A stretch of 64,000 nt of DNA from an uncultured Candidatus Saccharibacteria bacterium. GTDB lineage: Bacteria; Patescibacteriota; UBA1384; CAILIB01; JAUSJZ01. The notes beneath the pieces are model-generated. The model did not search any database, was not told the DNA's origin, and saw only the letters and a list, made by a program, of their open reading frames with translations. The position numbers and the translations under genes were made by a program. Positions 5,800 to 36,170 of the stretch are shown one piece after another. The stretch spans positions 1,749 through 65,748 of the forward strand of contig CAYQWZ010000002.1 in the NCBI GenBank assembly GCA_964421635.1. Reading direction: 5' to 3'. The stretch's first letter is position 1. Each line of letters starts with the position of its first letter.

Positions 5800-6765
5800 T
5801 TAAATATCTTTCGGTTGGCTGTCTTCTTTTTGGGTTAAATACCAGCGTGCTTCCAAAGCGGCTTTGCATCCGGCGCCGGCGGCGGTAATTGCTTGACGAT
5901 ATTTCCAGTCGTTGACATCGCCGGCTACGAAAACTCCTTCAATATTAGAATGCGGCGCGTTATCTGTCTTGATGTATCCTTCGTCATTTGTGGTAATAAA
6001 ATCTTTAAATATTTTTGTATTAGGATTATGACCGATAGACAGAAAAACTCCGTCAATTTTCATCTCAGAGATTTCATTCGTTTGGTTATTTTTGACAATA
6101 ACTTTCTCTAACTTTTTATCTCCTACATATTCTGTAATCTCAGTATTAAAAAGCCACTCAATTTTTTTATCTTGGCGGGCTCTCTCAAGCATTATTTTGG
6201 AAGCTCTTATTTTTTCATCCTTACCTTTGCGAACTAGTATAGTGACTTTCTTGGCGAACTTAGTTAAGAATGTTGCTTCCTCCATGGCGGCGTCTCCAGC
6301 ACCAACTACCACTAATTCTTTATCTTTATAGAAATATCCGTCGCAGGTAGCGCAGGTATGCACTCCCTTACTTTTCAATTCTTTCTCGCCCTTAACATTG
6401 AGCCAGCGGGCAGAGGCACCTGTAGCTAAAATCACCGAGTCAGCCTCAAATTTGCCAGCACTCTTGATTGAAATTGTAAAAGGATTATCTTTTAAATTCA
6501 CTTTTTTGGCCTCGTCGTAAATTACTTCAGCTCCGTATTTTTGGGCTTGCTTAATCATATCTTGCATTAACTTTGGGCCTTGAATGCCGTCGGGAAAACC
6601 AGGAAAATTATCGACATCCGTAGTCCACATTAACTGTCCACCCGGTTCAGAACCAGCAATAACGATTGGTTTTAATTCGGCTCGGGCGGCGTAAAGGGCG
6701 GCGGTCATGCCAGCTGGTCCGGATCCTAAAATGATTAATTTGGTTTTTCTCTTTTTGCTGTTCAT
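5800..6765 (-). CDS. trxB: Thioredoxin-disulfide reductase
   Basis: FAD/NAD-binding GxGxxG motifs and the redox-active CATCDG motif are seen. Confidence 0.9.
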   Translation of the reverse strand: MNSKKRKTKLIILGSGPAGMTAALYAARAELKPIVIAGSEPGGQLMWTTDVDNFPGFPDGIQGPKLMQDMIKQAQKYGAEVIYDEAKKVNLKDNPFTISIKSAGKFEADSVILATGASARWLNVKGEKELKSKGVHTCATCDGYFYKDKELVVVGAGDAAMEEATFLTKFAKKVTILVRKGKDEKIRASKIMLERARQDKKIEWLFNTEITEYVGDKKLEKVIVKNNQTNEISEMKIDGVFLSIGHNPNTKIFKDFITTNDEGYIKTDNAPHSNIEGVFVAGDVNDWKYRQAITAAGAGCKAALEARWYLTQKEDSQPKDI

Positions 6766-6817
6766 AAATATTTTTACTTTCGTTTTTCCAGCATAGCAAA
6801 TTTAATAAATTAAACTC

Positions 6818-6846
6818 TTGACACACCCGAGCATATAGCGTAGTTT
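6818..6846 (+). promoter_or_regulatory. Candidate promoter reading toward the 23S rRNA (TTGACA-17-TAGTTT)
   Basis: Seen: a consensus -35 with a weak -10, about 270 nt upstream of the 23S 5' end. Confidence 0.3.
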
Positions 6847-7615
6847 TAATAGAGTCTAATGTGTAAACAAAATACAATCTGAATGTAGCGCGAAAAAAGT
6901 ATTTTTATTTTTTTCTCGCGCCAGACGGCGCGTTTTTGTTTCTCTAGGCATGAACATTAACAATTAATCTAATTAGTGGAATAATTATCACAATTATTCT
7001 TCCGATATAAAAAAGAAACGTAGAAACGCGTATTCATATTTACAAAAATGTAAGTCATTAATCATAATCTTCAAGCTAAGTTCGCTTAGCCTCAGAGATA
7101 GTGAGCCTCGCAAGAGGTCGAGTAAGAAATGACGTACGAGCACAAGGTGGATGCCTTGGTAGACACGACCGATGAAGGACGTCTGAGCCTGCGATAAGCT
7201 TCGGGGAGCTGGCAACAAAGCTATGATCCGGAGATTTCCGAATGGGGTAACCTATCTACTATATGTAGATGCTAGTGGGTGCGAGTCCCGCTAGACGAAG
7301 ACCTGGTGAACTGAAACATCTTATTAACCAGAGGAAAAGAAATAAATTAGATTCCGTTAGTAGTGGCGAGCGAACGCGGAACAGCCCAAACCACGTTTAT
7401 TAAATGTGGGGTTGTAGGGTAAAAGTGGAGATATCTCGTAGTGAAAAAATTAAGTTATATAACAGAAGGAACCTGGAATAGGACCGCCATAGAGGGTGAT
7501 AGCCCCGTATGTGAAATGTAACTTAACACTATGACTTTTAATCCTGAGTACCACGAAGCACGAGAAACTTTGTGGGAATCTGGGGCGATCACGCTCCAAG
7601 GCTAAATATAGTGTC

Positions 7616-7662
<47 letters not shown>

Positions 7663-8227
7663 GATGAGGGGAGTGAAATAGTATCCTGAAACCTTGATGC
7701 TTCCAAGCAAGTAGGAGCCGGCATGTCCGGTGACTGCGTGCCTTTTGTAGAATGCGCCACCGAGTTAGCCGTAGATTGCTGGTTAAGGCGATATTGCTGT
7801 AGCCATAGGGAAACCGAGTCTGAATAAGGCGAAATATAAGTAGTCTGCGCTAAACCCGAAACCGTGTGAGCTATCCATGACCAGGGTGAACCCTCTTTAA
7901 ACGGAGGGGGAGGCCCGAACCAGGAAGTGTTGCAATACTTTTGGATGAGTTGTGGATAGGGGTAAAATGCCTATCGAACACGGCAATAGCTGGTTCTCTT
8001 CGAAATATATTTAGGTATAGCCGTCAGTGTTCCTGCTTGAGGTAGAGCACTTAATGGTTGCTTTGGGTCTTCGGATCCGACACCAATAAAACTCCGAATT
8101 CAAGTTAGTCATAACTGACGAGTCAGACTGTGGGGGCTAAGCTCCATGGTCGAAAGGGAAAGAGCCCAGATCGCAAGCTAAGGTCCCTAACTAGTATCTC
8201 AGTGGAAAAGGATGTGTTATCTCCAAT

Positions 8228-8258
<31 letters not shown>

Positions 8259-9014
8259 TCCTTTAAAAAGTGCGTAAAAGCTTACTGGTCTAGCGGTTTA
8301 CCGCAAGAGATGATGCGCCGAAAATTTAACGGGGCTTAAGGTACTGGCCGAAGCTGCGAACTTGTTGAATTATTAAAATTTAGCGAGTGGTAGAAGAGCG
8401 TTCGTGTTGTTGTGAAGCAATACCTGTGAGGGGTTGTGGAACGGCACGAAGTGAGAATGGTGGCATGAGTAACGTTTCAGTCAGGTGAGAACCCTGACCT
8501 CCGAATATCCAAGGTTTCCTGGGCAACGAGAATCGACCCAGGGTTAGGCGGCCCTAAGGTGAACCCGAAAGGGGTAGCCGATGGACAGACGGTTAATATT
8601 CCGTCCCCTATTTTAGTGCAACTGTATGACGCATTTAGGTGGTAGCAAGTTCCAATGGGAATATCTTGCTGCGAACTGGGTGACTAGAAAAGTACAGGTT
8701 AAAGGCTAAAATGGACCGTACCGATAACCGACGCCGGTGGATAGGTCGAGTAGACCAAGGAGATCGGAAGAACCTTCGTTAAGGAACTCGGCAAAAAAGC
8801 GTCCGTAACTTCGGGATAAGGACTGCCAACCTAATTTATTAGGTAGGCCGCAGCGAAAGAATCCAGGCGACTGTTTAGCAAAAACACAGCTCCGTGCTAA
8901 CTCGTAAGAGGATGTATACGGAGTGACGCCTGCCCAATGCCAGAAGGTTAAGGGGAATGCTAACATTTTTTGAAGGCATGAACTGAAGCCCTGGTGAATG
9001 GCGGCGGTAACTAT

Positions 9015-9281
9015 TAAGGTTAGTAGTTATAAAATTTGGCCAAATGCTGGAAACTCTGAGTATCTTGCGCTACTATAGAATAAATACTAGTTCGGTATAT
9101 GTTCGGTAGTAAAAATGCGACAAGTGCAGACAATCAGCAGGAAAGACTCTCATATGAAAGAATCCTCAGAGACTATACGCCAAACTCCTGAATAGGAGAT
9201 GATATAGTCCGATCTGTATGGCGACATGCAGAGTTAGGCAGAAATGTCTAGCCCACTCAACTTGAGTGAGTAACAATAATG
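9015..9281 (+). mobile_element. Group-I-like intron 1 in 23S (ORF-less, ~267 nt), at about E. coli position 1917
   Basis: The exon sequence AACTAT|...|AACCGTCCTATGGTAGCG is interrupted. The 5' exon ends in U and the insert ends in G (the group I rule). Confidence 0.6.
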
Positions 9282-9315
9282 AACCGTCCTATGGTAGCGA
9301 AATTCCTTGTCGGGT

Positions 9316-9756
9316 AAATCAAGTCGGAAAAACTTGCCCGAAAGTTGCAGCAATGCAGCTTCAGTAAACTGGCTCAAAACGGTGAAGCCTAAAGTGGTTA
9401 ATCAAATTGTCATGCTGACGGTGCCACAATGGTAATACCGTGGGAAGTCTCTGCTTCGGCAGATGACCCCGTAACGACTGAGACGAAAGTCAAGACTCAC
9501 TACAGGTGGGTAATACGGCCAGCTCTTGCATAAAAAAGGATATATGAATTTTGCAGCTTACATTACCGGTTTCGTAGACGGAGAAGGGTGTTTCATAAAG
9601 AAACATTTGAATCCTCAAGTTTTAAAAGAAATCATTACGACTTCTTATAAAATGAACGATTCTGGGACAAGAAAGTTAAGCCAAGCAAAACTTCTAAGTA
9701 TCTTGTAAGATGAAGGTATAGTCTGATCCAACATGAAAGTGTTGTAACATTCAGTG
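9316..9756 (+). mobile_element. Group-I-like intron 2 in 23S (~441 nt), at about E. coli 1949-1951, carrying a LAGLIDADG remnant
   Basis: Exon CGGGT|...|AAGTTCCGACCCGCACGAATGGCG. It contains the shared core motif AATACCGTGGGAAGT...ACCCCGTAACGACTG closed by a UUCG-loop hairpin instead of an ORF. Confidence 0.6.
9526..9708 (+). pseudogene. Truncated LAGLIDADG homing endonuclease remnant (60 aa) inside intron 2
   Basis: A single LAGLIDADG motif (ITGFVDGEGCF). Too short to be a functional enzyme. Confidence 0.5.
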
Positions 9757-10304
9757 AAGTTCCGACCCGCACGAATGGCGTAACGATCTGGATACTGTCT
9801 CAACGAAGGATCCGGTGAAATTCCACTACCGGTAAAGATGCCGGTTAGATGCAGAAAGACGAAAAGACCCCGTGAAGCTTTACTATAGTTTGGCATTGTT
9901 GTATAACGATGTTTGCGCAGCATAGGTGGGAGACTTTGAAACTCTAACTTCGGTTAGATGGAGTCACCAGTGAGATACCACCTGAGTGTTGATATGCAAC
10001 TCACTCCCGGTTAAGACGGGAAGACAGTGTCTGATGGGTAGTTTAACTGGGGCGGTTGCCTCCTAAATTGTAACGGAGGCGTTCAAAGGTTTACTTGGCC
10101 AGGATGGAAATCTGGCAATAAAGTGTAAAAGCATAAGTAAGCTTGACTGCAAGACCTTCAAGTCGAGCAGATGCGAAAGCAGGATTTAGTGATCCGACAC
10201 TTACATGTGAAAGTGGTGTCGCTCAACGGATAAAAGTTACTCCGGGGATAACAGGCTTATTGCGCCCAATAGCCCATATAGACGGCGCAGTTTGGCACCT
10301 CGAT

Positions 10305-11226
10305 AATCCAAAGAAAGTCGAGAATAAAGTGACTCATAACGGTGGAGCCCTACTGTTTGTTCGGTAAATGTTTGGTATAATATACCAAATAATAGAATAA
10401 CAGGGGTAATACCGTGGGAAGTTACAAGACTGGCCATTATCAGCAGAATTGGTCTAAAATTAAAAGTTCGTTGTCGCTGAATAAACGACAGCAATCCTTA
10501 ATAATAGGCTCAATGCTTGGTGATGGCACTATGCGTATAGGCAAAAACGCAATTAATGCAAATTTCAAAGTGGAACAAGGCTTGAAACAAGAAGCTTATG
10601 TCTATTGGAAATATCGCATTTTGCATCCTTTTGTTTACACCGAACCAAAAATTAGCTATCGGTATGATAGTCAAGGGCAAAGATATCCAAAATCTTGGTG
10701 GTTTAGAACCATTAGATGCTCCCTTTTAACTGAAATATATAATCAGTTTTATACAGGAGAAGGATATCGAACAGGTAGAAAAATTGTACCTAATAATATA
10801 GTTAATTTTCTTGACCCATTAGCCTTATCAGTTTGGATAATGGATGACGGGTCATATAATAGAGGAAGAATAGATATTAGTACTTACTCATTTACTTTAG
10901 TGGAAGTAAAAATGTTAATAAGTGCAATATTTGAGAGATATGATATTCAAATGAATATGTATAAAGATCGTGATAAAGGCTATAGAATATATGCCAATCA
11001 AGATAATACTAAATCATTAATTGAAACAATCTCTCCGTTCATTATTCCTTCTATGAGGTATAAGGTGGGTTTTGTAACCCCGTAACGACTGGATCCTTAG
11101 TTCAGAAAGCTAAGGTGAAGATTCAGAATCTGAAACGATATATATTTCTGAATAACACGTCGCTGCTTGGACAACGCAGTCCAAGTAAAGGTATAGTCTG
11201 CACAGCTAGTAATAGTTGATAATGCG
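10305..11226 (+). mobile_element. Group-I-like intron 3 in 23S (~922 nt), at about E. coli 2504 in the peptidyl-transferase region
   Basis: Exon GGCACCTCGAT|...|GTCGGCTCATCGCATCC, with U before the intron and G at its end. Confidence 0.65.
10414..11085 (+). CDS. Double-motif LAGLIDADG homing endonuclease (223 aa, GTG start) encoded in intron 3
   Basis: Motifs LIIGSMLGDGTM and LSVWIMDDGSY. The ORF begins and ends inside the conserved intron core motifs. Confidence 0.85.
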   Translation: MGSYKTGHYQQNWSKIKSSLSLNKRQQSLIIGSMLGDGTMRIGKNAINANFKVEQGLKQEAYVYWKYRILHPFVYTEPKISYRYDSQGQRYPKSWWFRTIRCSLLTEIYNQFYTGEGYRTGRKIVPNNIVNFLDPLALSVWIMDDGSYNRGRIDISTYSFTLVEVKMLISAIFERYDIQMNMYKDRDKGYRIYANQDNTKSLIETISPFIIPSMRYKVGFVTP

Positions 11227-11290
11227 GTCGGCTCATCGCATCCTGGAGCTGGAGCAAGTTCCAAGGGTTTGGCTGTTCGCCAATTAAAGC

Positions 11291-11330
<40 letters not shown>

Positions 11331-11387
11331 ACTTAATCTTCTGTATCCGAGGAAGTTTGAGAGGGCTTCTCCCTAGTAAAACATTGC

Positions 11388-12152
11388 TACTTCACGAAGT
11401 AATTCGTGTTGACAATGCGGCTCATAACGGTGAAACCTTCATTATTGGCTGGTTAATACTAAGAACGTAACATAGTTTGGTCCAAAATTTGTTACAATGC
11501 TTGAGGACCAGAAAATATTAAGGCAATACCGTGGGAAGTCAATCTAATGTTAGATTTTCATATATAGCAGGTTTTCTTGATGGTGACGGGAGTTTAATGT
11601 TACAAATTAAACAACGTCCCAAAACAAAATCTGGGTATAGGTTTATGGCTACTATCTGTTTTTATCAAGATACGCGTCATGAATCTGGGCTTGTATGGAT
11701 CCAAAAAGTTCTAAAAATAGGTTATTTAAGTCGACGCAAAGATGGAATAACTGAATTAAGGATTAATGGGTTTACTCAAGTCAATGAGATATTAATAAAA
11801 ATATATCCATATATTCAATTTAAGAAAATTCAAGCAGAAGCATTAATTGAAGCAACGAATATCTTAAAAGATAAGAATGTAAATCAATTATGTGAAGCTG
11901 AGCTAGAAAGAATAGTAAAACTTATAATATTGTTAAGAAAACATAATTATAAGAGTAGCTATCGAAAAAGCTTGGTTAGTATAAGAAAAACATTAGGTTT
12001 GACCCCGTAACGACTGATCGAAAGAGAGAGTACATATTAATGTGCTAATACGCCGACTCCAATCAAAAAAGCTACAAAGATGGTTAATTAACCTAAATTT
12101 GAGTGATTGGATGAAAGTATAGTCTACGCCTTTAGAAATAAAGGATTTCGTG
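11388..12152 (+). mobile_element. Group-I-like intron 4 in 23S (~765 nt), inserted in the sarcin-ricin loop region (CCTAGT|ACGAGAGGACCGG)
   Basis: Exon continuity, a U...G boundary, and the same core motif family as introns 2 and 3 (CTCATAACGGTG..., AATACCGTGGGAAGT, ACCCCGTAACGACTG). Confidence 0.65.
11531..12010 (+). CDS. Single-motif LAGLIDADG homing endonuclease (159 aa, GTG start) encoded in intron 4
   Basis: Motif IAGFLDGDGSL. The size is I-CreI-like. Confidence 0.85.
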   Translation: MGSQSNVRFSYIAGFLDGDGSLMLQIKQRPKTKSGYRFMATICFYQDTRHESGLVWIQKVLKIGYLSRRKDGITELRINGFTQVNEILIKIYPYIQFKKIQAEALIEATNILKDKNVNQLCEAELERIVKLIILLRKHNYKSSYRKSLVSIRKTLGLTP

Positions 12153-12420
12153 ACGAGAGGACCGGGAGGAACGTGCCTCTGGTGTACCAGTTGTCATCCC
12201 AATGGCATCGCTGGGTAGCTACGCACGGCTAGATAAGCGCTGAAAGCATATAAGCGCGAAGCTAGCCTCAAGATTAGACTTCATAGATCCCTGGCAGACT
12301 ACCAGGTTGATAGGCACTAGGTGTAAGTGTGGTGACACACTCAGCCGTGGTGTACTAATAGATCATTTCATTTCTTACTCATAAAACTCACTAGTATTTA
12401 GTGAGCTCACTATCTCTGAG

Positions 12421-12452
12421 AAAAAGACCCCTATTTTTAGGTGGTCTTTTTG
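12421..12452. terminator. Hairpin plus T-run terminator downstream of the 23S 3' end (aaaaagacc...ggtcttttt)
   Basis: Seen: 9-bp stem, A-run on one side and T-run on the other (bidirectional-looking). Preceded by the 14-nt perfect palindrome TAGTGAGCTCACTA at 12399-12412. Confidence 0.45.
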
Positions 12453-12539
12453 TTTAGCGAAATCTCTTGATAATTAGTAGGATATCAGATAGAGTAGTTT
12501 TTAATGGGTGCGAATTCAGGGAGGAGAGAGGTGAGATGC

Positions 12540-12905
12540 ATGTCTGAAACAGTAGTACGGTTGGGGGTCAGAGTTCACTGCCAACTACTCGGAGGTGGTG
12601 GCTCTGCGCCAAAAGCCATCGCTGGCGAGTTTCGCGTGAACAGCGATGGCGAGCTGGCTGATGACAACGAGGTGCAGAGAGCCATCAACGCCCAAATCGG
12701 CCAGGTGGTTGAGGATTGGGTGCGTATACACAATGTCAATGTGGCTACGCTTGTGGTCACCGGTGGCGGCATGCGCATCTGCAACGGGGAGATCGAAGTC
12801 AGAGGAGAGCCACCGCAAGCGGTGGCGGACAGCATCCGCGCACTGCGCCAGCAGGAGGAGGTCAGGAATGCCGAGAGGCAGACCCTTCTCCGCGCATTGG
12901 GGTGA
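12540..12905 (+). CDS. Hypothetical protein (121 aa) in a ~63% GC island inserted between 23S and 5S
   Basis: ORF 12504..12905, with an ATG at 12540 after GGGAGGAGAGAGGTGAG (a strong RBS) and followed by a strong terminator. Opposite-strand and other-frame ORFs in this island are GC-driven shadows. Confidence 0.5.
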   Translation: MSETVVRLGVRVHCQLLGGGGSAPKAIAGEFRVNSDGELADDNEVQRAINAQIGQVVEDWVRIHNVNVATLVVTGGGMRICNGEIEVRGEPPQAVADSIRALRQQEEVRNAERQTLLRALG

Positions 12906-12954
12906 ATGGCGTTCCTGCCTGACTAGTCCAAGAATCTTTGCCTACGAGACCTAC

Positions 12955-12986
12955 GAGCGCGCCCTTCGGGCGCGCTCATTCTTTTG
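12955..12986 (+). terminator. Rho-independent terminator GAGCGCGCCCTTCGGGCGCGCTC followed by a T-run
   Basis: Seen: a perfect 10-bp GC stem, a UUCG loop, then TTCTTTTGT. Confidence 0.75.
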
Positions 12987-13006
12987 TCAAAATTTTCAAT
13001 ATTGCC

Positions 13007-13035
13007 TTGACAAACGGCTCAACATAAGGTAAATT
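13007..13035 (+). promoter_or_regulatory. Candidate sigma70-type promoter for the 5S rRNA (TTGACA-17nt-TAAATT), predicting a TSS at ~13043
   Basis: Seen: a consensus -35, a 17-nt spacer and an AT-rich -10 ending 8 nt before the 5S 5' end. Confidence 0.5.
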
Positions 13036-13043
13036 AGCTAATG

Positions 13044-13163
13044 TCTTGGTGATTTTAGCGGTGGGGGTACACCCGTTCTCATTCCGAACACGGAAGTTAA
13101 GCCCACCAGCGCCGATGGTACTTGCCGGGAAACTGGCCGGTAGAGTAGGACATTGCCAAGGCA
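13044..13163 (+). rRNA. rrf: 5S rRNA
   Basis: Conserved CCGAACACGGAAGTTAAGC core and a length of about 120 nt. Confidence 0.85.
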
Positions 13164-13206
13164 TATTTTTTTTGCTAAAAAAAGGCACATCCTTTAGAAT
13201 TAACTC

Positions 13207-13356
13207 ATGAATAATATATTTTCTCTTTTAGCCTTGGTGGTTGGTTTGGTATCCTTCTTCGTGCAAGATACGACAGCAATCTCTCTCATGGCAATCTTTT
13301 TCGTTCTGTGGGGACTGTACGGATTACTAGGCCAAGAAAGCAAAAAGGAGTAGTCT
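13207..13356 (+). CDS. Small hydrophobic protein (49 aa, two predicted TM segments)
   Basis: Hand translation: MNNIFSLLALVVGLVSFFVQDTTAISLMAIFFVLWGLYGLLGQESKKE. Below the ORF-track cutoff. Confidence 0.3.
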
Positions 13357-13377
13357 AAATTAAATAGTTTTGAGTGT

Positions 13378-13686
13378 TTGGTATTTGTTCGGTATAATAG
13401 TTTGGTGAAGAAAATTTTAAATGAGCCCAACTATTGTCAGAATTATGATCCTTCTATTCCCGTAGAAGTATATGTTTCTTTCAATGGCAATTTAGTGAGG
13501 CCTATCGCTTTTCGTTATCAGGGGCGCAATGTGCGTTTAAGAAAAGTAAATATGGTGCATCATGTTAAACGGGGGCAAAACAAGATCTACTACTTCTCTA
13601 CTAGCAATCGCCAAGCGGCCTACACTTTGAGCTTTCATACAGGCAGTTTAGAGTGGCGATTAGAAAACATTTGGCTAGAAGCATAA
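13378..13686 (+). CDS. Hypothetical protein (start uncertain). A TTGAGT-17-TATAAT promoter-like element sits at 13370-13398, so the true start is probably TTG/GTG near 13408.
   Basis: ORF-track ORF with no recognisable family. Confidence 0.35.
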   Translation: MVFVRYNSLVKKILNEPNYCQNYDPSIPVEVYVSFNGNLVRPIAFRYQGRNVRLRKVNMVHHVKRGQNKIYYFSTSNRQAAYTLSFHTGSLEWRLENIWLEA

Positions 13687-13713
13687 AAATCTGGCAACTG
13701 TTAGAATAAAGAT

Positions 13714-14286
13714 GTGAGAACAAAGATACGAACTAAAATTTATACTAAAAAGGGAGATCGAGGCAAAACTCATTTGGCCGATGGACGGGTGGTAAAAAAG
13801 GATAACTGTTTAGTAGAAGATATTGGCACGCTAGACGAACTTAATTCATCTTTAGGGCATTTATTGGCTATTGAAAATATTGATAAAAAAGATTGCGAGA
13901 TACTTTTGCGAGCACAAAACAATTGTTTCTTTTTTGGCGCAGTAGTAGCTCAAGCGCGGCCAGAAATTTTAAATAAAATACGAGCCAATTTTGCTGATGG
14001 TGACACTACTAATTTAGAACAAAGGATTGACGAGTTAACTCAAAATTTACCGGAACTAAAAAATTTTATTTTACCCGGCGGCTCAGAAGCCGCCGCGAGA
14101 GCGCATGTAGCTCGCACAAACTGTCGTCGAGCTGAGCGTCGTTTGGTTAATTTAAAGACAGAAATAAAAAGTTTAGACCAACAGATGCGCAGCTATCTCA
14201 ACAGATTATCTGATTACTTATTTACTCTAGCTCGGGTTTTCAACAAACAGGCCGGTCTAAATGATGTAATCTGGAATAAAGGATAA
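13714..14286 (+). CDS. PduO-type ATP:cob(I)alamin adenosyltransferase family protein
   Basis: IYTKKGDRGKT...GTLDELNSSLG...ILPGGSEAAARAHVARTNCRRAER matches the MMAB/PduO family pattern. GTG start. Confidence 0.75.
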   Translation: MRTKIRTKIYTKKGDRGKTHLADGRVVKKDNCLVEDIGTLDELNSSLGHLLAIENIDKKDCEILLRAQNNCFFFGAVVAQARPEILNKIRANFADGDTTNLEQRIDELTQNLPELKNFILPGGSEAAARAHVARTNCRRAERRLVNLKTEIKSLDQQMRSYLNRLSDYLFTLARVFNKQAGLNDVIWNKG

Positions 14287-22440: not shown

Positions 22441-22896
22441 CTAATTGCGTGGGCTAAAATAGTAATCGTACCATTCAAGTAAAGGTGATTCAGGTGCCTC
22501 TTCCTCTTCTATTTCGGTCTCAACATTTAGGGGTTCAGCTCCTTTTAGTGCGACTACCGTTTCGCCTGGTTTTTTAAGCAGTAAGCGACGACGCAGCTCT
22601 ATCTCTTGGTAAGATTCAGTTTCATAATAGGCTAATAAAGATTTTAACTTCTCTCGCTCAAGCTGCAAATTGACAATCTCTTCTCGCGCTTGGTCAATTT
22701 CTATTTTCGTCTGGTAATTTTTGTAAATATTTACTACCACAGAATAAAGGATATAAATTACTACCAGCGCAACTAAAATAAGGTTAAATATATCGAAAGA
22801 TCGAAGTTGCGCTCGCTTCCACCAAGGTTGACGCTCTAGAGGCATCTGCTCCTGATCTCTTTTAGGTCTTTTTTTAAGAAATTTTAAAATATTCAT
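22441..22896 (-). CDS. Septum formation initiator (FtsB/DivIC-like) family protein
   Basis: A single TM followed by a coiled coil (EIDQAREEIVNLQLEREKLKSLL). Confidence 0.6.
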   Translation of the reverse strand: MNILKFLKKRPKRDQEQMPLERQPWWKRAQLRSFDIFNLILVALVVIYILYSVVVNIYKNYQTKIEIDQAREEIVNLQLEREKLKSLLAYYETESYQEIELRRRLLLKKPGETVVALKGAEPLNVETEIEEEEAPESPLLEWYDYYFSPRN

Positions 22897-22922
22897 TAGT
22901 TATATTGTAGCTTTCTTTTTGG

Positions 22923-22951
22923 TTGACAAAAAGGATTATTTTTGCTAATAT
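22923..22951 (+). promoter_or_regulatory. Textbook sigma70-type promoter TTGACA-17nt-TAATAT upstream of the GC-rich secreted-protein gene
   Basis: Seen directly. Followed by the RBS GGGAGAAGGAGGA and an ATG at 22995. Confidence 0.5.
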
Positions 22952-22994
22952 TTGGTCAGCTTCGAACCTGAACACAAGGGAGAAGGAGGACGAC

Positions 22995-24212
22995 ATGCGG
23001 CGATACCTGATTGCGACACTACTGGTGCTGGCGGTGCTGGCACCGACACAGGCGGTCGATCCGGTCGAGTGGCTGATGCGACAGACTGGCGCTCGCAGTC
23101 CCGAAGAGTTGGTGGTTGATTTGGCTATCGACACCACTTTTTCCGGATTGATCGAGAAGTGTGAAATCAAGAACCCAAAGGTGAACGCGGCGTTTGATTG
23201 CGCCTTGATTGGACGCGGCGCACCGGTTGGGATTGTTCCGGCTGTGTCTGACCTGCGACGCGAAGAACAGGTCGAGCGAGCGATGGCTGAGATGCTGGGG
23301 CTTGACCCGCGTCTTGCTTTACAGAAGTTGAAAAGTGATGAAGATAGAGATCTCTCGGTCAGTGGCCCCCTGACTGCTTCTTTGATGCAAATGGGCGCTC
23401 TGGTGGTAGCAACGCCGAGAGAAGTGGAAAGAACGAGCCGAGAGCGGGCGGCGGATCGCAATAATGCGGAAGTCCGTCCTGGCTCTGTAGCGCCGCCCGC
23501 TACCATTGAGCGAGCTATCTACTATCTCGTTTGGGTCTTCGAGCCGTTGGCTGGCTTTGAGTACAACGAGTGGTATCAGCTTCTTACTCAGCGCAATGTC
23601 ATCACCTTGACATCAGAGCTGCGCGTGGCCATTAAGCTGGCCGATACAGACGTAACGGTGGCGTACATTACCATCCCTATCGAAATCCGCGAAGTGGGTG
23701 CCAACCGTGACCGCGGTCGGAGCCGACAGTACGCTTCACCGTTTCTGCATGCCATGCTGCGCAAGGCTTCTGACTATTTGGGTCAGATGTTGCATCGAGA
23801 GAATACTCTCTTGGAGCAGCTAGTGGTCGGCAAGTATCGTTATGATCCGGCGGCGGCTTCGACAATCGCTGCTGGTGAAGAAGCGGTTGAGCCTGTTTGG
23901 CCAGTGGTGTCGGGGCAAGTCCGTCCCAAACTGGTTCCGGCTCAAGGCTTGCCCCGACACCGAGTCATCGCCCAGCTAACTGGTGGCTTGACGCTCATCA
24001 GTGCAGGGCGAGCAGACGGATTGCGTGAAGGAAGCGCTGTACAGGTTGGCGGTTATGGTTTCAGCGTCTTCCGAGTAGCTGACAGCTACGCTTTCATTGT
24101 GGCCACCTCTGATAGCGTAGGAGCGCGTGAAGCGTTGCACTACGATGTGCCGGTTCAATTCATTCCGGTCGTCGAGCCGGTACCGGCACAAACTCCGGCA
24201 TCAACAGACTAG
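22995..24212 (+). CDS. Secreted hypothetical protein (405 aa) encoded in a ~60% GC island
   Basis: N-terminal signal peptide MRRYLIATLLVLAVLAPTQA. Strong RBS, consensus promoter and a strong terminator. The opposite-strand ORF 22874..23506 is a shadow. Confidence 0.6.
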   Translation: MRRYLIATLLVLAVLAPTQAVDPVEWLMRQTGARSPEELVVDLAIDTTFSGLIEKCEIKNPKVNAAFDCALIGRGAPVGIVPAVSDLRREEQVERAMAEMLGLDPRLALQKLKSDEDRDLSVSGPLTASLMQMGALVVATPREVERTSRERAADRNNAEVRPGSVAPPATIERAIYYLVWVFEPLAGFEYNEWYQLLTQRNVITLTSELRVAIKLADTDVTVAYITIPIEIREVGANRDRGRSRQYASPFLHAMLRKASDYLGQMLHRENTLLEQLVVGKYRYDPAAASTIAAGEEAVEPVWPVVSGQVRPKLVPAQGLPRHRVIAQLTGGLTLISAGRADGLREGSAVQVGGYGFSVFRVADSYAFIVATSDSVGAREALHYDVPVQFIPVVEPVPAQTPASTD

Positions 24213-24244
24213 ACATAACAAGTACTTGATTCAAAGTAGCTTCA

Positions 24245-24278
24245 AGCGGCGGGCGTTAGCCCGCCGCTCTTTTTATTT
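24245..24278. terminator. Bidirectional rho-independent terminator AGCGGCGGGCGTTAGCCCGCCGCT plus a T-run, between convergent genes
   Basis: Seen: a 10-bp GC stem, a 4-nt loop, then CTTTTTATTT. Confidence 0.7.
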
Positions 24279-24294
24279 AGCAATTTTTTTAAAT

Positions 24295-24672
24295 TTAAAG
24301 ACTACCAGGATTTGAAGCGATGTTGACAACCGTTTGTGCAATCACAACTGCCAAAACAGTAATCACAATACCGACGGCGCCATAGACTAATCCTTTTTTT
24401 GCCTCAGTATATTTCTCTTCGTTGCCGCCAGCGGTAATCATTTTGTATCCGTTAAGACCAGTAAAAACAATGGCGTAAATAGTGGCTAAAGTGAAAAGTA
24501 ATGTTAAAAGATTTAAAAGGATTACTTTTATTTCAACATCTGGGGAAAAAAAACGGTTAATATCAAAAATATCTTTCCAGTCATCATCGGTAACCTGAGC
24601 TTGTGCTTTAAGAGGAACGAGAAAAGATAAATAGATTATTAGTTTGGTAAATTTTTTCATTAGACAGTTCAT
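24295..24672 (-). CDS. Pilin-like small membrane protein, paralog 1 (VirB2/T4SS-pilin-like topology)
   Basis: Signal peptide, then two hydrophobic helices with the conserved loop motif ITAGGNEEK...AKKGLVYGAVGIVI shared across the array. Confidence 0.5.
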   Translation of the reverse strand: MNCLMKKFTKLIIYLSFLVPLKAQAQVTDDDWKDIFDINRFFSPDVEIKVILLNLLTLLFTLATIYAIVFTGLNGYKMITAGGNEEKYTEAKKGLVYGAVGIVITVLAVVIAQTVVNIASNPGSL

Positions 24673-33186: not shown

Positions 33187-33215
33187 TTGACAAACCTGTT
33201 ATATCCTGCTATGTT
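33187..33215 (+). promoter_or_regulatory. Promoter-like TTGACA-17nt-TATGTT overlapped by the inverted repeat AACAGGTT...AACCTGTT, upstream of the DGR target gene
   Basis: Seen directly. The palindrome arms lie at 33181-33188 and 33193-33200. Confidence 0.45.
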
Positions 33216-33290
33216 AGTCACGATCTAAAAGGATCCATCCATGTCAGCTAGGAATAGGCCTACGCTCACATGTATGCAGGAGTGAACAAA

Positions 33291-34277
33291 ATGCAACGGG
33301 AACCAATGTCGGAAGGCGACTTGGCAGACGCCAAGCGCATACTGACTCAACCCCTGGAAGGCGTCAGCCACGAGGGGTGGCAGTTGCTCAAGACGCGGCT
33401 CAGTGGTGTCATGCAGCAGATCGGCGACATCGGCCGCGCGGTGGAGCAGGAGCTGAAGATCCAGCAACTGCTGGGTAAGTCCGTCCTGCCCCTGACCGCA
33501 CTGCCCGAGGGCGGTTACTGTCGGGCCAACACGTCGTTGGTCTACGACTTGACCAACCGGCTGAGCCTTGACGAGCGGTTCGACCTGCTGGCGGTGCTGA
33601 TGGGCAATTTCGGCATCGACCGCTCCCAGCTCGATCTGGGCGTCGCGCCCGAGGGCGAATCCGGCTGGACGACCATGCTGACGGTTAACCCCGTCAACCT
33701 GGCCACGAAGCTGGGTCTCTCGGTCGTCCTGTCCGGCCTCGACAACGCCAAGAAGGTCGCTGCGGCCGCTACGGCGTACTGCCAGATGGTTGGGCCACTG
33801 GTGCAGAATCTGCCCAAGGCTCGGCCGACGGTCAGCGACTGGCTGCAGGGCCGGCTGGAGAGCGACTACATACTGCTTGAGCCGACCGCTGGTCAGCGCT
33901 GGCAGAACGTGGCCGTGCAGGAGCCGAACCGACCGCTCGTGGTGCGCCAGATGCGGTGCAATCCTGCGACCTGGTTTGCCAACGAGAGTGCGATCTACTC
34001 CCTGTCGCCGGACAACGTCTGTCACTTCACGGCGACCGATGTACAAATCGGCGACCTAGTGAATTTCGCCTGTCTGGCGGTCACCGAACCCTGGGTCTGC
34101 CAGGGCATCGCTGCGGGCACAGCGCCCCGGATCGACATTTCCGGGTGCCGCGTGTTCGACGATGACGGGTGGTCGGACTCGCCGTACTGCTGCCAGGGCG
34201 ACGATGGGGCATGGCTCAACTGCCATTGGGCTGACGATGCCAACGGCGACTACGGTTCGTTGCTCCTCCGGGAGTAA
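33291..34277 (+). CDS. DGR target (variable) protein. GC-rich (~62%), no signal peptide, with a Cys-rich variable region at its C-terminus.
   Basis: ORF 33270..34277, with the ATG at 33291 preceded by AGGAG. The last 40 codons coincide with VR. The opposite-strand ORF 33225..34046 is a shadow. Confidence 0.75.
   Translation: MQREPMSEGDLADAKRILTQPLEGVSHEGWQLLKTRLSGVMQQIGDIGRAVEQELKIQQLLGKSVLPLTALPEGGYCRANTSLVYDLTNRLSLDERFDLLAVLMGNFGIDRSQLDLGVAPEGESGWTTMLTVNPVNLATKLGLSVVLSGLDNAKKVAAAATAYCQMVGPLVQNLPKARPTVSDWLQGRLESDYILLEPTAGQRWQNVAVQEPNRPLVVRQMRCNPATWFANESAIYSLSPDNVCHFTATDVQIGDLVNFACLAVTEPWVCQGIAAGTAPRIDISGCRVFDDDGWSDSPYCCQGDDGAWLNCHWADDANGDYGSLLLRE
34152..34271 (+). repeat. DGR variable repeat (VR) at the 3' end of the target gene
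   Basis: A ~120-nt near-copy of TR (34628-34747). All ~17 mismatches fall where TR has A (A to G mostly, also A to T and A to C). Confidence 0.85.
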
Positions 34278-34304
34278 CTTCGGTCTTCGGAACTCGAACC
34301 CTTG

Positions 34305-34318
34305 GTCCGCTCGGACCT
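34305..34318 (+). promoter_or_regulatory. GC-rich hairpin GGTCCGCTCGGACC ~30 nt downstream of VR. A candidate DGR target-recognition hairpin, absent downstream of TR.
   Basis: Seen: a 5-6 bp GC stem with a 4-nt loop in the GC-rich segment right after VR. Confidence 0.4.
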
Positions 34319-34627
34319 TGGAAACTGGACTCGCGGTCGTGCTGACGAAAGTCGGCGCGGCCGCGTTTTACATTTAGCATGTAGCGCTCGACTTGGTTCT
34401 TGAAACAAGTTACAATTAATCTTGATATTAGGTCAGTGAGCGGCAATTTAAGGATTTCCGTCACCGAAATCACGCTTCTGCCATTCAGCAGAGTTGAATC
34501 ATCTACGGATGTTTCAAGCGTCAAGGCAGTAAGGGTACTCCGTACTCAATCCAAGAATAACGCAAAATAAATAGACAGGTAGTAGATAGTACTTTGCTAC
34601 CAGTGACATAGATAGGGTTGGGTGCAA

Positions 34628-34747
34628 GTGTTCAACGATGACAAATGGTCAAACTCGCCATACTGCAACCAGAACGACGATGAGGCATGGCTCAACAACA
34701 ATTGGGCTGACAATGCCAACGACAACTACGGTTCGTTGCTCCTCCGG
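34628..34747 (+). repeat. DGR template repeat (TR), non-coding and Asn-codon-rich (translates to VFNDDKWSNSPYCNQNDDEAWLNNNWADNANDNYGSLLLR)
   Basis: Matches VR except at A positions. 10 of the 12 variable codons are AAC/AAT in TR. Followed by a stop and no ORF. Confidence 0.85.
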
Positions 34748-34754
34748 TAGTACC

Positions 34755-35123
34755 TTAGCTCAAACTTCGTATCCATCCTCCAAGCATCTTGCCGATCTCC
34801 TGCAATTGCTCCTGGAGGGTGAGATACTTAGTCATATTTAAACATTTTGTTTCGTAAGCTAAACGAACTAACAGCTTAAGCAGGTCAAGTTTGGCGCTTA
34901 GTGGTAAGAGTTGTTGTTTGCGCAAACCTTTTGGTAGACTATTAGTCAACAACAATCCTTTGAGCAAGCCTAAAGTTGTAGTCTGTAGTCTCTCACCTAG
35001 TGAATAACGTTCAACTTTCGGAAAAAGATGAATCCACAAATGCAACTGCCGATAGAAATCGAACAACTTCCCGACAATAGGAATGGGGGTAAAGCTGTCG
35101 GGGGGGGTATTCTTGGTAGTCAT
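34755..35123 (-). CDS. Avd-like accessory variability determinant (four-helix-bundle / 23S rRNA IVS protein family)
   Basis: LFPKVERYSLGERLQ...LSAKLDLLKLLVRLAYETKCLN...LQEIGKMLGGWIRSL matches the four-helix-bundle (TIGR02436-like) pattern to which Avd belongs. Opposite strand to TR and RT; its 5' end overlaps the RT2 start region. Confidence 0.6.
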   Translation of the reverse strand: MTTKNTPPDSFTPIPIVGKLFDFYRQLHLWIHLFPKVERYSLGERLQTTTLGLLKGLLLTNSLPKGLRKQQLLPLSAKLDLLKLLVRLAYETKCLNMTKYLTLQEQLQEIGKMLGGWIRSLS

Positions 35124-36170
35124 TTTAATATCAGTTTTGAGCGAGTTATTTCTTTAGAGAATTTGATTACAGCTTGGTATGAATTTCGTCGTGGCAAGAG
35201 CAAAAGAATCGACGTTCAACAATTTGCCAACAATCTAGAAGATAACATATTTGCCCTACATAACCAACTTAAAAATGGTTTGTATAAACACGATCATTAC
35301 AGTCAATTTAATATTAACGACCCCAAACCTCGTCTGATCAGCAAAGCTACTGTTAAAGACCGTTTGGTTTACCACGCCCTTTACAGGGCGCTTTATCCTT
35401 TATTCGACAAGACATTTATTTACGATTCGTATTCCTGTCGCAAGAACAAAGGAACGCATAAGGCTTTTCAACGTTTAAGAAAATTAATTTTGTCTTGCAG
35501 TCAGAACTACACCCAACCGTGCTTTGCACTCAAATGTGACATTTATCGCTTCTTTGATTCGATTGATCACAATACTTTGCTTAGTCTAATTGCTAAAAAA
35601 GTACATGACTCGAAACTACTGTTACTTATCAAAAACATCATTGATAGTTTCGAAACTTCTTCTAGTAAAGGTATGCCAATTGGCAATCTTACTTCCCAAC
35701 TCTTCGCTAACATTTATATGGATCCACTAGATAAGTTTATTAAACACAGATTAAAAGCCAAGCATTATCTTCGCTATGCCGATGACTTCTTGTTATTATC
35801 TAACTCACCAACAGTTCTTCATGGTTATCTCAAAGAGATCAACGCTTTTGTGCAAGATAGGCTGAAACTCAAGTTGCATCCTCATAAAATTAGTCTACGA
35901 AAACTGTCTTGGGGAATTGATTTTGTTGGTTATGTGGCTTTGCCTTATCAAACTAAGCCTAGAAACAAGACTGTTAAAAGAATATTTAAGAAGATTGAAG
36001 ATAATATTTACCACGAAAATATTGACGCGACGTTTAATTCTTATTTGGGTTATTTACAACATGCTGATTCAGAAGATCTGCAATTAGCACTTTTAGACCG
36101 CTGGAAATCGGTATCCCACACCGGTTATGGTAATAGATTATTGACTGACCATCGACCTTTTTACAGATAG
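35028..36170 (+). CDS. Reverse transcriptase, DGR-type (RT2)
   Basis: Motifs FIYDSYSCRKNKGTHKA, MPIGNLTSQLFANIYMD ([I/L]GxxxSQ) and YADDF. Adjacent TR/VR pair. Confidence 0.85.
   Translation: MNPQMQLPIEIEQLPDNRNGGKAVGGGILGSHFNISFERVISLENLITAWYEFRRGKSKRIDVQQFANNLEDNIFALHNQLKNGLYKHDHYSQFNINDPKPRLISKATVKDRLVYHALYRALYPLFDKTFIYDSYSCRKNKGTHKAFQRLRKLILSCSQNYTQPCFALKCDIYRFFDSIDHNTLLSLIAKKVHDSKLLLLIKNIIDSFETSSSKGMPIGNLTSQLFANIYMDPLDKFIKHRLKAKHYLRYADDFLLLSNSPTVLHGYLKEINAFVQDRLKLKLHPHKISLRKLSWGIDFVGYVALPYQTKPRNKTVKRIFKKIEDNIYHENIDATFNSYLGYLQHADSEDLQLALLDRWKSVSHTGYGNRLLTDHRPFYR

Follow-up and report, generated by a model that had tools for sequence, protein, structure and literature searches.

A GC-rich gene lies between the 23S and 5S rRNA genes

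We analyzed a 64,000-nucleotide (nt) stretch of contig CAYQWZ010000002.1 (here called the window), which has a guanine-plus-cytosine (GC) content of about 40%, and report on a GC-rich open reading frame (ORF) of 121 amino acids (aa) that lies in the spacer between its 23S and 5S ribosomal RNA (rRNA) genes. An earlier annotation made from the letters alone (the sequence-only reading) had placed a protein-coding gene here, bracketed by hairpin terminators, preceded by a strong ribosome-binding site, and followed by a 5S rRNA gene with a promoter of its own, and these elements were all recovered in our analysis. The features of the spacer and of the 5S gene are as follows.

12421..12452, no strand assigned: predicted bidirectional hairpin terminator for 23S; an A-run lies on its 5' side and the T-run TTTTTGTTT on its 3' side
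12467..12495, plus strand: candidate ORF promoter, TTGATA-17-TAGAGT, with 9 of 12 consensus matches (weak evidence)
12520..12535, plus strand: Shine-Dalgarno region GGAGGAGAGAGGTGAG; it stops 5 nt short of the ATG at 12540
12540..12905, plus strand: the ORF, 121 aa, orphan family (protein P0001); GC 0.60, with 0.70, 0.43, and 0.66 at codon positions 1, 2, and 3 (GC1, GC2, and GC3)
12955..12977, plus strand: perfect 10-bp hairpin with nine GC pairs, followed by ATTCTTTTGT; predicted 3' end or terminator of the ORF transcript
13007..13035, plus strand: predicted 5S promoter, TTGACA-17-TAAATT, with 10 of 12 consensus matches, ending 9 nt before the Rfam start of 5S
13045..13175, plus strand: 5S rRNA (13045-13161, 90 bits in Rfam) followed by its own T-run

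The ORF has a GC content of 0.598, and the highest 200-nt window reaches 0.62, so the GC-richness seen in the sequence-only reading stands but its figure of about 63% is too high. The GC3 of the ORF (0.66) is well above the mean of 0.37 for the genes of the window, and the GC-richness runs from the Shine-Dalgarno site to the hairpin with sharp edges, the adjoining noncoding DNA being 28 to 38% GC. An alternative in-frame ATG at 12504, which would give a protein of 133 aa, is upstream of the Shine-Dalgarno stretch; because the Shine-Dalgarno site at 12520-12535 serves position 12540, we take the latter as the start, and an exact look-up of the 133-aa version found no record.

Both predicted terminators combine a stable GC hairpin with a U-run, as intrinsic terminators do, and the region around the first (12380-12460, 81 nt) folds with a predicted energy of -28.2 kcal/mol (z -5.5). 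The second had been described as a perfect GC stem with a UUCG loop; the perfect 10-bp stem is present, but its loop in this register reads UUC: the letters CUUCGG are there, with the G paired. Signals of these kinds are not in themselves rare, since promoter-like and terminator-like sites in 6500-14000 are no commoner than in shuffled sequence, and an ORF of at least 121 codons occurs in about 10% of shuffles of the GC-rich 481-nt stretch, which makes ORF length alone weak evidence. We regard the spacer elements as above chance because they are conserved in related genomes. The seven sampled copies of the locus itself are 100% identical.

The ORF encodes a protein of an undescribed family

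Our protein searches covered about 15 billion proteins, including 1.84 billion cluster representatives and 5.8 billion clusters. An exhaustive HMMER search of the 1.84 billion representatives identified P0003 as the sole true relative of P0001 (E value 2.5e-7, 41% identity over 82 residues), and two word-indexed protein searches added no relative beyond this pair. A third match, P0004, was dismissed as a low-complexity repeat protein. Phages, plasmids, and IMG/VR yielded no homologue of the family, a metagenome scan with a 42-nt 5S pattern returned only the contig of the relative L007, which encodes P0003, and a search with the 93-aa protein encoded downstream of 5S found nothing beyond the same strain and, from another relative, a fragment of 572 nt. 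As had been claimed, the protein has no recognizable family: P0001, P0003, and the product of the spacer ORF in a more distant relative, L010, matched none in Pfam, PHROGs, NCBIfam, PADLOC, or a sequence-profile search of PDB. The ORF therefore defines an undescribed protein family with two demonstrable members among the proteins searched.

The composition of the ORF by codon position is typical of coding sequence, with G at 48% of first positions. Across the 74-codon core shared by P0001 and P0003, there are 32, 24, and 46 differences at codon positions 1, 2, and 3, respectively; 25 of the 40 identical residues are encoded by different codons, and the proportion of differences is 0.78 at synonymous sites (pS), which is saturated, and 0.36 at nonsynonymous sites (pN). 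A six-frame comparison scored 141 for sense versus sense, compared with 28 ± 5 for shuffles, and only the +1 frame is open in both genomes. We considered an antisense gene and rejected it: the score of 101 for the -2 frame is a by-product of the sense conservation, and stops interrupt that frame in L007. The conserved blocks are VRLGV, PKxIAGxF, EDW, and TGGGMxIxNG, while the last approximately 36 residues cannot be aligned between P0001 and P0003 (pN 0.68), and the ORF as a whole has evolved about twice as fast as its neighbors. At the level of sequence comparison, these data show that the ORF is a real protein gene under purifying selection on its N-terminal 83 or so residues.

The gene occupies the same site in related genomes

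P0003 is encoded at the same site in contigs L007 to L009, by an ORF of 59% GC. The order in L007 is the 3' end of 23S, a strand of the pre-23S processing stem, a hairpin terminator, a Shine-Dalgarno site, the ORF, a GC hairpin, a sulfotransferase gene, TTGACA-17-TAAATT, and 5S; downstream of 5S, the window and L007 are alike in encoding a 48-aa peptide, a 93-aa protein, Cob_adeno_trans, and DUF389. Neighboring orthologues in the two genomes have 66 to 70% protein identity, pS values of 0.73 to 0.85, and GC3 values of 0.29 to 0.49, and the rRNA flanks are 95 to 97% identical, compared with about 68% for protein genes at the DNA level. The GC3 of the ORF is 0.66 in the window and 0.68 in L007, and the AT-rich stretches within the spacer are common to both. 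Within the spacer, L007 retains the stem of 12421-12452 with a different loop, a -35-like CTCTTGA that is among the few conserved blocks of an otherwise diverged AT-rich stretch, the sequence GAGGAGG 5 nt before the ATG of its ORF, and a 3' hairpin with the same stem (GCGCGCCC/GGGCGCGC), a GUAA loop, and a weaker tail (TTGTTCATTG).

A contig scan with Cob_adeno_trans found no close relative, and its best match (49%) led to the more distant L010 (JAUSJZ010000037.1). This contig is syntenic downstream, with identities to the window of 49% for Cob_adeno_trans, 67% for the 93-aa protein, 44% for the 48-aa peptide, and 91% for 5S. Its spacer ORF is 5'-truncated, with at least 133 codons, and has 65% GC and a GC3 of 0.84 against a background of 45 to 52% GC; it is followed by a perfect GC hairpin of a different stem (GAGGCGCC/GGCGCCTC) with a weaker tail (GATTTTAAAA), by TTGACA-17-TATCGT, and by 5S. 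The similarity of its product to the family is not significant (BLASTP E value 0.6, hhalign E value 0.35), a GGSVKxxVRL motif being all that it has in common with P0003.

The sequence-only reading had proposed a foreign gene recently wedged into an rRNA operon, and had suggested comparing the spacers of relatives for the same gene at host-like GC. The gene is there in relatives, at the same non-host GC. Much about the composition fits a recent horizontal acquisition, in which the 23S-5S spacer would have received a gene from a GC-rich donor too recently for it to have become host-like: the overall GC (0.60 in a window of 0.40) and the GC3 are atypical, the amino-acid usage is GC-type (12 Arg and 1 Lys in P0001), the compositional edges at the Shine-Dalgarno site and the hairpin are sharp, and the window holds two more GC-rich orphan ORFs. 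This origin is nevertheless improbable. The gene is at the same site in L007 and its layout recurs in L010, with GC3 values of 0.66 to 0.84 across these genomes; the AT-rich flanks within the spacer are shared with L007; the protein, phage, plasmid, and IMG/VR searches gave no homologue in other organisms and no donor; and the spacer has no integrase or transposase ORF and no flanking direct repeat. Since synonymous sites are saturated and the ORF still has a GC3 of 0.66 and 0.68 at the same site in two genomes, recent transfer appears unlikely, and the gene is better described, from these comparisons, as an old resident of the 23S-5S spacer.

A residence of this kind could also be produced by a cassette that spreads among relatives by homologous recombination, using the near-identical 23S 3' end and 5S as homology arms. 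The contrast between the rRNA flanks and the protein genes in DNA identity would suit such exchange, as would the variable content of the spacer (the sulfotransferase gene in L007 and a membrane-protein gene in L010) and the low amino-acid identity of the ORF product (36 to 41%, compared with 66 to 70% for the neighbors). However, ORF divergence roughly follows host divergence, similarity being detectable in L007 and lost in L010, and exchange leaves the lasting high GC unexplained; a test of tree congruence needs more genomes than three. We consider spread by recombination quite unlikely.

The spacer appears to tolerate cargo, because L007 carries the sulfotransferase gene and L010 has the membrane-protein gene, which lies after 5S. 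The sulfotransferase gene (PF13469; 10439-11438 of L007) has host GC and is between the ORF hairpin and the 5S promoter. The sequence TTTATTGTAACGT (10477-10489 of L007), just upstream of the sulfotransferase, nearly repeats TTTATTGTACCGT (9958-9970), which is upstream of the spacer ORF, and is also loosely like the 5S promoter region; these resemblances suggest that duplication of a promoter segment accompanied the insertion. The 48-aa peptide (13207-13353 in the window), which is hydrophobic, and the 93-aa protein (13405-13686), which has no family, are encoded after 5S in all three lineages.

The 23S gene, the ORF, and the 5S gene as predicted transcription units

The hexamers of the predicted 5S promoter have the 17-nt separation and the placement of a sigma-70-type promoter (16 to 18 nt, at the gene), and the expected transcription start is 1 to 3 nt from the mature 5' end of 5S, as the sequence-only reading had proposed. 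In L007, the hexamers are identical and the 17-nt spacing is exact, with a diverged sequence between them, and in L010 the corresponding TTGACA-17-TATCGT is at the same distance from 5S. Both relatives also keep the T-run that follows helix I of 5S.

Upstream of the spacer gene, the 23S transcript has a predicted processing stem whose strands are as follows.

7101..7116, plus strand: CTCAGAGATAGTGAGC, in the leader of 23S, forming the 5' side of the pre-23S processing stem; its exact reverse complement is 12405-12420
12405..12420, plus strand: 3' strand of the pre-23S processing stem, GCTCACTATCTCTGAG, with 16 of 16 positions complementary to 7101-7116

This duplex is just outside helix 1 of 23S, as an RNase III-type processing stem would be, and both strands are identical in L007. 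The palindrome that had been noted after the 23S gene is present (TAGTGAGCTCACTA, 12399-12412) and overlaps the 3' stem strand; because 12405-12420 is the exact reverse complement of the 23S leader, we do not read it as a free-standing signal.

Conservation of the hairpins and of the 5S promoter, in both its hexamers and their spacing, makes it likely that 23S, the ORF, and 5S form three transcription units. The 23S unit would have the promoter-like sites at 6957-6985 and 7039-7068 upstream, the leader/trailer stem, and the terminator at 12421-12452 right after it. The ORF would be transcribed either from its own weak promoter or by read-through of the 23S terminator, and translated from its strong Shine-Dalgarno site. 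The 5S transcript would start almost at the mature 5' end and stop at its own U-run. If this three-unit model is true, 5S is a near-mature mini-gene uncoupled from 23S, and the usual route to equal amounts of the large-subunit RNAs has been removed.

Excess mRNA folding and maintained GC-richness

We compared the predicted folding of each ORF with that of its own synonymous-codon shuffles, with the following z scores.

Window ORF: -2.98
L007 ORF: -2.5
L010 ORF: -4.15
30 host genes: mean -0.39, standard deviation 1.04, minimum -2.3
29 genes native to genomes of 58 to 72% GC: mean -0.77, standard deviation 0.99, minimum -2.44

Thus, the three spacer ORFs fold beyond all 59 control genes, and the ORF taken together with its hairpin gave z scores of -3.1 and -3.4 relative to dinucleotide shuffles.

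These values raise the question of whether the GC-rich stretch is mainly a structured RNA, serving in rRNA precursor handling or as an independent noncoding RNA, with the ORF incidental or secondary, or whether the transcript has a dual function. The excess folding in three lineages is what such an RNA would give; the length of the ORF is not significant on its own, and GC pressure is seen even in the choice of amino acids. Conservation is nevertheless at the protein level, with third positions varying most and only the sense frame both conserved and open. A search of 12380-13044 with Rfam 15 found nothing at the gathering threshold or at E values up to 1 apart from a sub-threshold suhB match over the terminator hairpin (22 bits, threshold 41). 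The two-sequence consensus fold is -64 kcal/mol, compared with about -205 for the single folds, and only the terminal hairpin is common to both; nor does the spacer have similarity or complementarity to 23S, 5S, or the rest of the window. In addition, similar excess folding in two unrelated GC-rich ORFs of the window shows that the property is not specific to rRNA. A noncoding stretch that matches a structured RNA, which the sequence-only reading had named as a refuting outcome, is thus at odds with both the coding tests and the Rfam search, and we rate the broader structured-RNA explanation as unlikely.

The two other GC-rich orphan ORFs, at 22995-24212 and 33270-34277 (the latter the target of a diversity-generating retroelement [DGR]), have folding z scores of -1.9 to -3.1 and TTGACA promoters, and a strong Shine-Dalgarno site, together with a perfect GC hairpin past the stop codon, marks the first of them, which encodes a putative secreted protein. 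It occupies a second GC-rich island (22896-24312, up to 59% GC), with TTGACA-17-TAATAT at 22923-22951. Its product is 429 aa long when counted from the first listed TTG, begins with a signal-peptide-like sequence (MRRYLIATLLVLAVLAPTQA), and has no Pfam family, and the ORF is followed by the perfect hairpin AGCGGCGGGC-GTTA-GCCCGCCGCT and a T-run, so in its cassette style and its excess folding it is like the spacer ORF. The DGR (33187-36170) is complete and apparently active. Its target ORF is 64% GC, with a GC3 of 0.82, and has TTGACA-17-TATGTT upstream and a variable region at 34152-34285, from which the template repeat at 34628-34761 differs only at template A; a bAvd-like gene (34755-35123, minus strand) and the reverse transcriptase gene (35028-36170) complete the element.

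GC-biased gene conversion was judged an unlikely cause of the high GC of the spacer ORF, the noncoding parts of the spacer being 28 to 38% GC. Confinement of the GC-richness to the interval from the Shine-Dalgarno site to the hairpin argues against regional processes and for gene-specific selection on the nucleotide sequence. The retention of 60 to 65% GC and of extra mRNA structure in genomes of 40 to 50% GC, despite saturated synonymous change, points the same way, as mutation bias or slow drift explains it poorly; it may bear on mRNA stability or the control of expression in ultra-small bacteria. It is conceivable, though we think it fairly unlikely, that GC-richness and excess pairing are a selected trait of a small class of transcripts comprising the spacer ORF, the secreted-protein gene at 22.9 to 24.3 kb, and the DGR target. 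The hallmarks of that tentative class would be a TTGACA-type promoter (the spacer ORF has only TTGATA, at 9 of 12 consensus positions), a strong Shine-Dalgarno site, and a perfect GC hairpin. These transcripts may be ultra-stable messages in an AT-rich, ribosome-poor cell; alternatively, the RNA from the spacer may serve two functions, or the spacer gene may have arisen de novo out of a structured rRNA spacer, an origin that would account for its orphan status, fast evolution, and position.

Properties of the spacer protein

No signal peptide or membrane segment was found in the spacer proteins, whose isoelectric points (pI) are 5.4 for P0001, 7.6 for P0003, and 9.5 for the L010 protein. The best AlphaFold2 model of P0001 from the two-sequence alignment (predicted local distance difference test score [pLDDT] 81.8) has a beta-hairpin, a helix, a strand, and a C-terminal helix, and the weak model of P0003 (pLDDT 53) has the same order of secondary-structure elements. 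P0001 is probably soluble and cytoplasmic, its core folded as beta-beta-alpha-beta and followed by a C-terminal helix. Fold searches of PDB and BFVD gave no match at an E value of 0.001 or better.

The position of the gene between 23S and 5S in three lineages is what would be expected if its product were a lineage-specific ribosome-associated or 5S/23S-binding protein, encoded in the rRNA cluster for joint production. The best Foldseek matches in PDB, all of them archaeal LX or eukaryotic eL20 large-subunit proteins, are in line with this idea but are not significant (E values 0.05 to 1.5, template modeling [TM] score about 0.3), and the underlying model is shaky. Several standard proteins are reportedly missing from the ribosomes of candidate phyla radiation (CPR) bacteria (PMC9297842). 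Against a ribosomal role, the spacer proteins are not consistently basic, they evolve about twice as fast as their housekeeping neighbors with an unconserved C terminus, and predicted terminators insulate the gene from both rRNA units. We therefore view this role as very unlikely.

Several specific families were examined and rejected. The ribosomal protein eL20/LX was set aside on the weakness of its best match (E value 0.05, TM score 0.33), on PDB profiles that showed nothing relevant, and on proteins that are not basic (pI 5.4 and 7.6). Homing endonucleases (LAGLIDADG, GIY-YIG, HNH) had no match in Pfam, NCBIfam, or PHROGs, although the intron ORFs of the same 23S gene do match LAGLIDADG. 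The four-helix bundle of 23S intervening sequences and bAvd-like proteins (PF22296/PF05635) had no Pfam match, and the predicted order here is beta-beta-alpha-beta-alpha. A DGR variable protein was rejected because the sole such repeat pair in the window (34152-34285/34628-34761) has no link to 12.4 to 13.0 kb. Matches to PADLOC antiphage defense models were at noise level (E values 0.005 and 0.04), with different models for the two homologues.

Comparison with known systems and overall interpretation

The 16S gene is separate from 23S-5S in Helicobacter, Wolbachia, Rickettsia, and many CPR genomes, and all three rRNA genes are dispersed in Thermoplasma. As in these split operons (for general background on unlinked rRNA genes, see PMC7761764), the rRNA genes here are predicted not to be cotranscribed, with a separate promoter and terminator for each unit; 5S has its own promoter, and an Rfam scan found no 16S in the 7 kb upstream of 23S. 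Unlike the bacterial cases reported, which mostly separate 16S from 23S-5S, the break here is between 23S and 5S, which are about 670 nt apart with a protein gene in the gap. Our literature search found no paper on such a break with a protein gene in the gap, which is not proof of absence.

CPR rRNA genes are known to carry insertions, namely group I and group II introns and others that encode LAGLIDADG, GIY-YIG, and HNH endonucleases (PMC11270868). The spacer gene shares this neighborhood, as the 23S gene of the window itself has introns and two LAGLIDADG ORFs, but it is outside the rRNA, beyond both the processing stem and the terminator, and is served by expression signals of its own; unlike the intron ORFs, which are 30 to 33% GC, it is GC-rich and matches no endonuclease family. 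With the orphan genes of CPR/Patescibacteria it has in common the lack of a family, a tiny phyletic range, small size, and fast evolution, and it differs from them in its stable synteny, its lasting non-host composition, and its excess mRNA structure, although the other two GC-rich orphan ORFs of the window have the same composition and excess structure. The likeness to eL20/LX consists of the top weak structural matches and a size near that of archaeal LX proteins, in an archaeal and eukaryotic family with which it has no sequence similarity.

On balance, we favor, with moderate confidence, the interpretation that the interval is a small self-contained gene unit, long resident between rRNA genes that are transcribed independently, in a lineage that is rare and probably of CPR type. 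Its protein would be a lineage-specific accessory factor that rRNA maturation does not require, and the gene would sit in the spacer because the spacer tolerates extra genes. A GC-rich, highly paired message with a 3' hairpin cap would be selected for long life in an AT-rich cell.

Several points weigh against this interpretation. The family has only two demonstrable members, and the L010 ORF may be an orthologue that has diverged greatly, or another gene in that position. Three genomes are too few to separate vertical descent from exchange through the near-identical rRNA flanks. The candidate promoter of the ORF is a weak match to the consensus, at 9 of 12 positions, and the long-lived mRNA is a proposal prompted by the composition of the ORF and its folding energies. 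The fold model is not stable, as pLDDT is 44 to 66 in the remaining four models of P0001, and no test that we ran assigns the protein a function; the lasting position of the gene beside 23S and 5S could after all point to a role connected with the ribosome.

Unlinked rRNA genes and CPR orphan genes are known themes, and what is puzzling here is the maintained GC-richness and excess mRNA structure in a family held beside rRNA genes across deep divergence. We regard the locus at present as a well-defined puzzle rather than a discovery.

The 23S gene and other features of the window

The 23S gene and its insertions are as follows.

7124..12379, plus strand: 23S rRNA gene with several introns (Rfam matches, local large-subunit rRNA [LSU] scan, and alignment to the L007 23S)
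8960-9231 and 9306-9745: group I introns in 23S (Rfam)
10414-11085 and 11531-12010: LAGLIDADG ORFs in 23S (strong Pfam matches to LAGLIDADG_1 and LAGLIDADG_2)

The whole-window Rfam match to 23S stops at 10378 because large introns interrupt the gene. In the local scan, the 3' exon at 12138-12366 corresponds to LSU model positions 2655-2912, and the exon blocks align to the L007 23S in agreement with that scan, which places the 23S end at about 12379. Insertions amount to approximately 2.3 kb in the window 23S (the two group I intron matches and two LAGLIDADG ORFs) and approximately 0.6 kb, at one site, in the L007 23S (6293-9841); such a difference in load between genomes whose 23S exons are 93 to 97% identical indicates fast intron turnover. 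Upstream of 23S, a GC hairpin terminator at 6917-6932 precedes the promoter-like sites at 6957-6985 and 7039-7068, and the block at about 6950-7052 is nearly invariant between the window and L007, conserved far more than the surrounding coding sequence.

Elsewhere, the window encodes a type IV secretion system-type pilin, a DUF4012 protein, and two reverse transcriptases, one of them within the complete DGR. Insertions have been reported in 82% of CPR 23S genes (PMC11270868), and from the gene content of the window and its 23S insertions, the host is probably a CPR/Patescibacteria-type organism of a rare lineage. The second reverse transcriptase gene (RVT_1, 439-1563) adjoins a Fic/DOC-domain gene on the opposite strand (1520-2599), and this pair may be another retroelement or a defense module.

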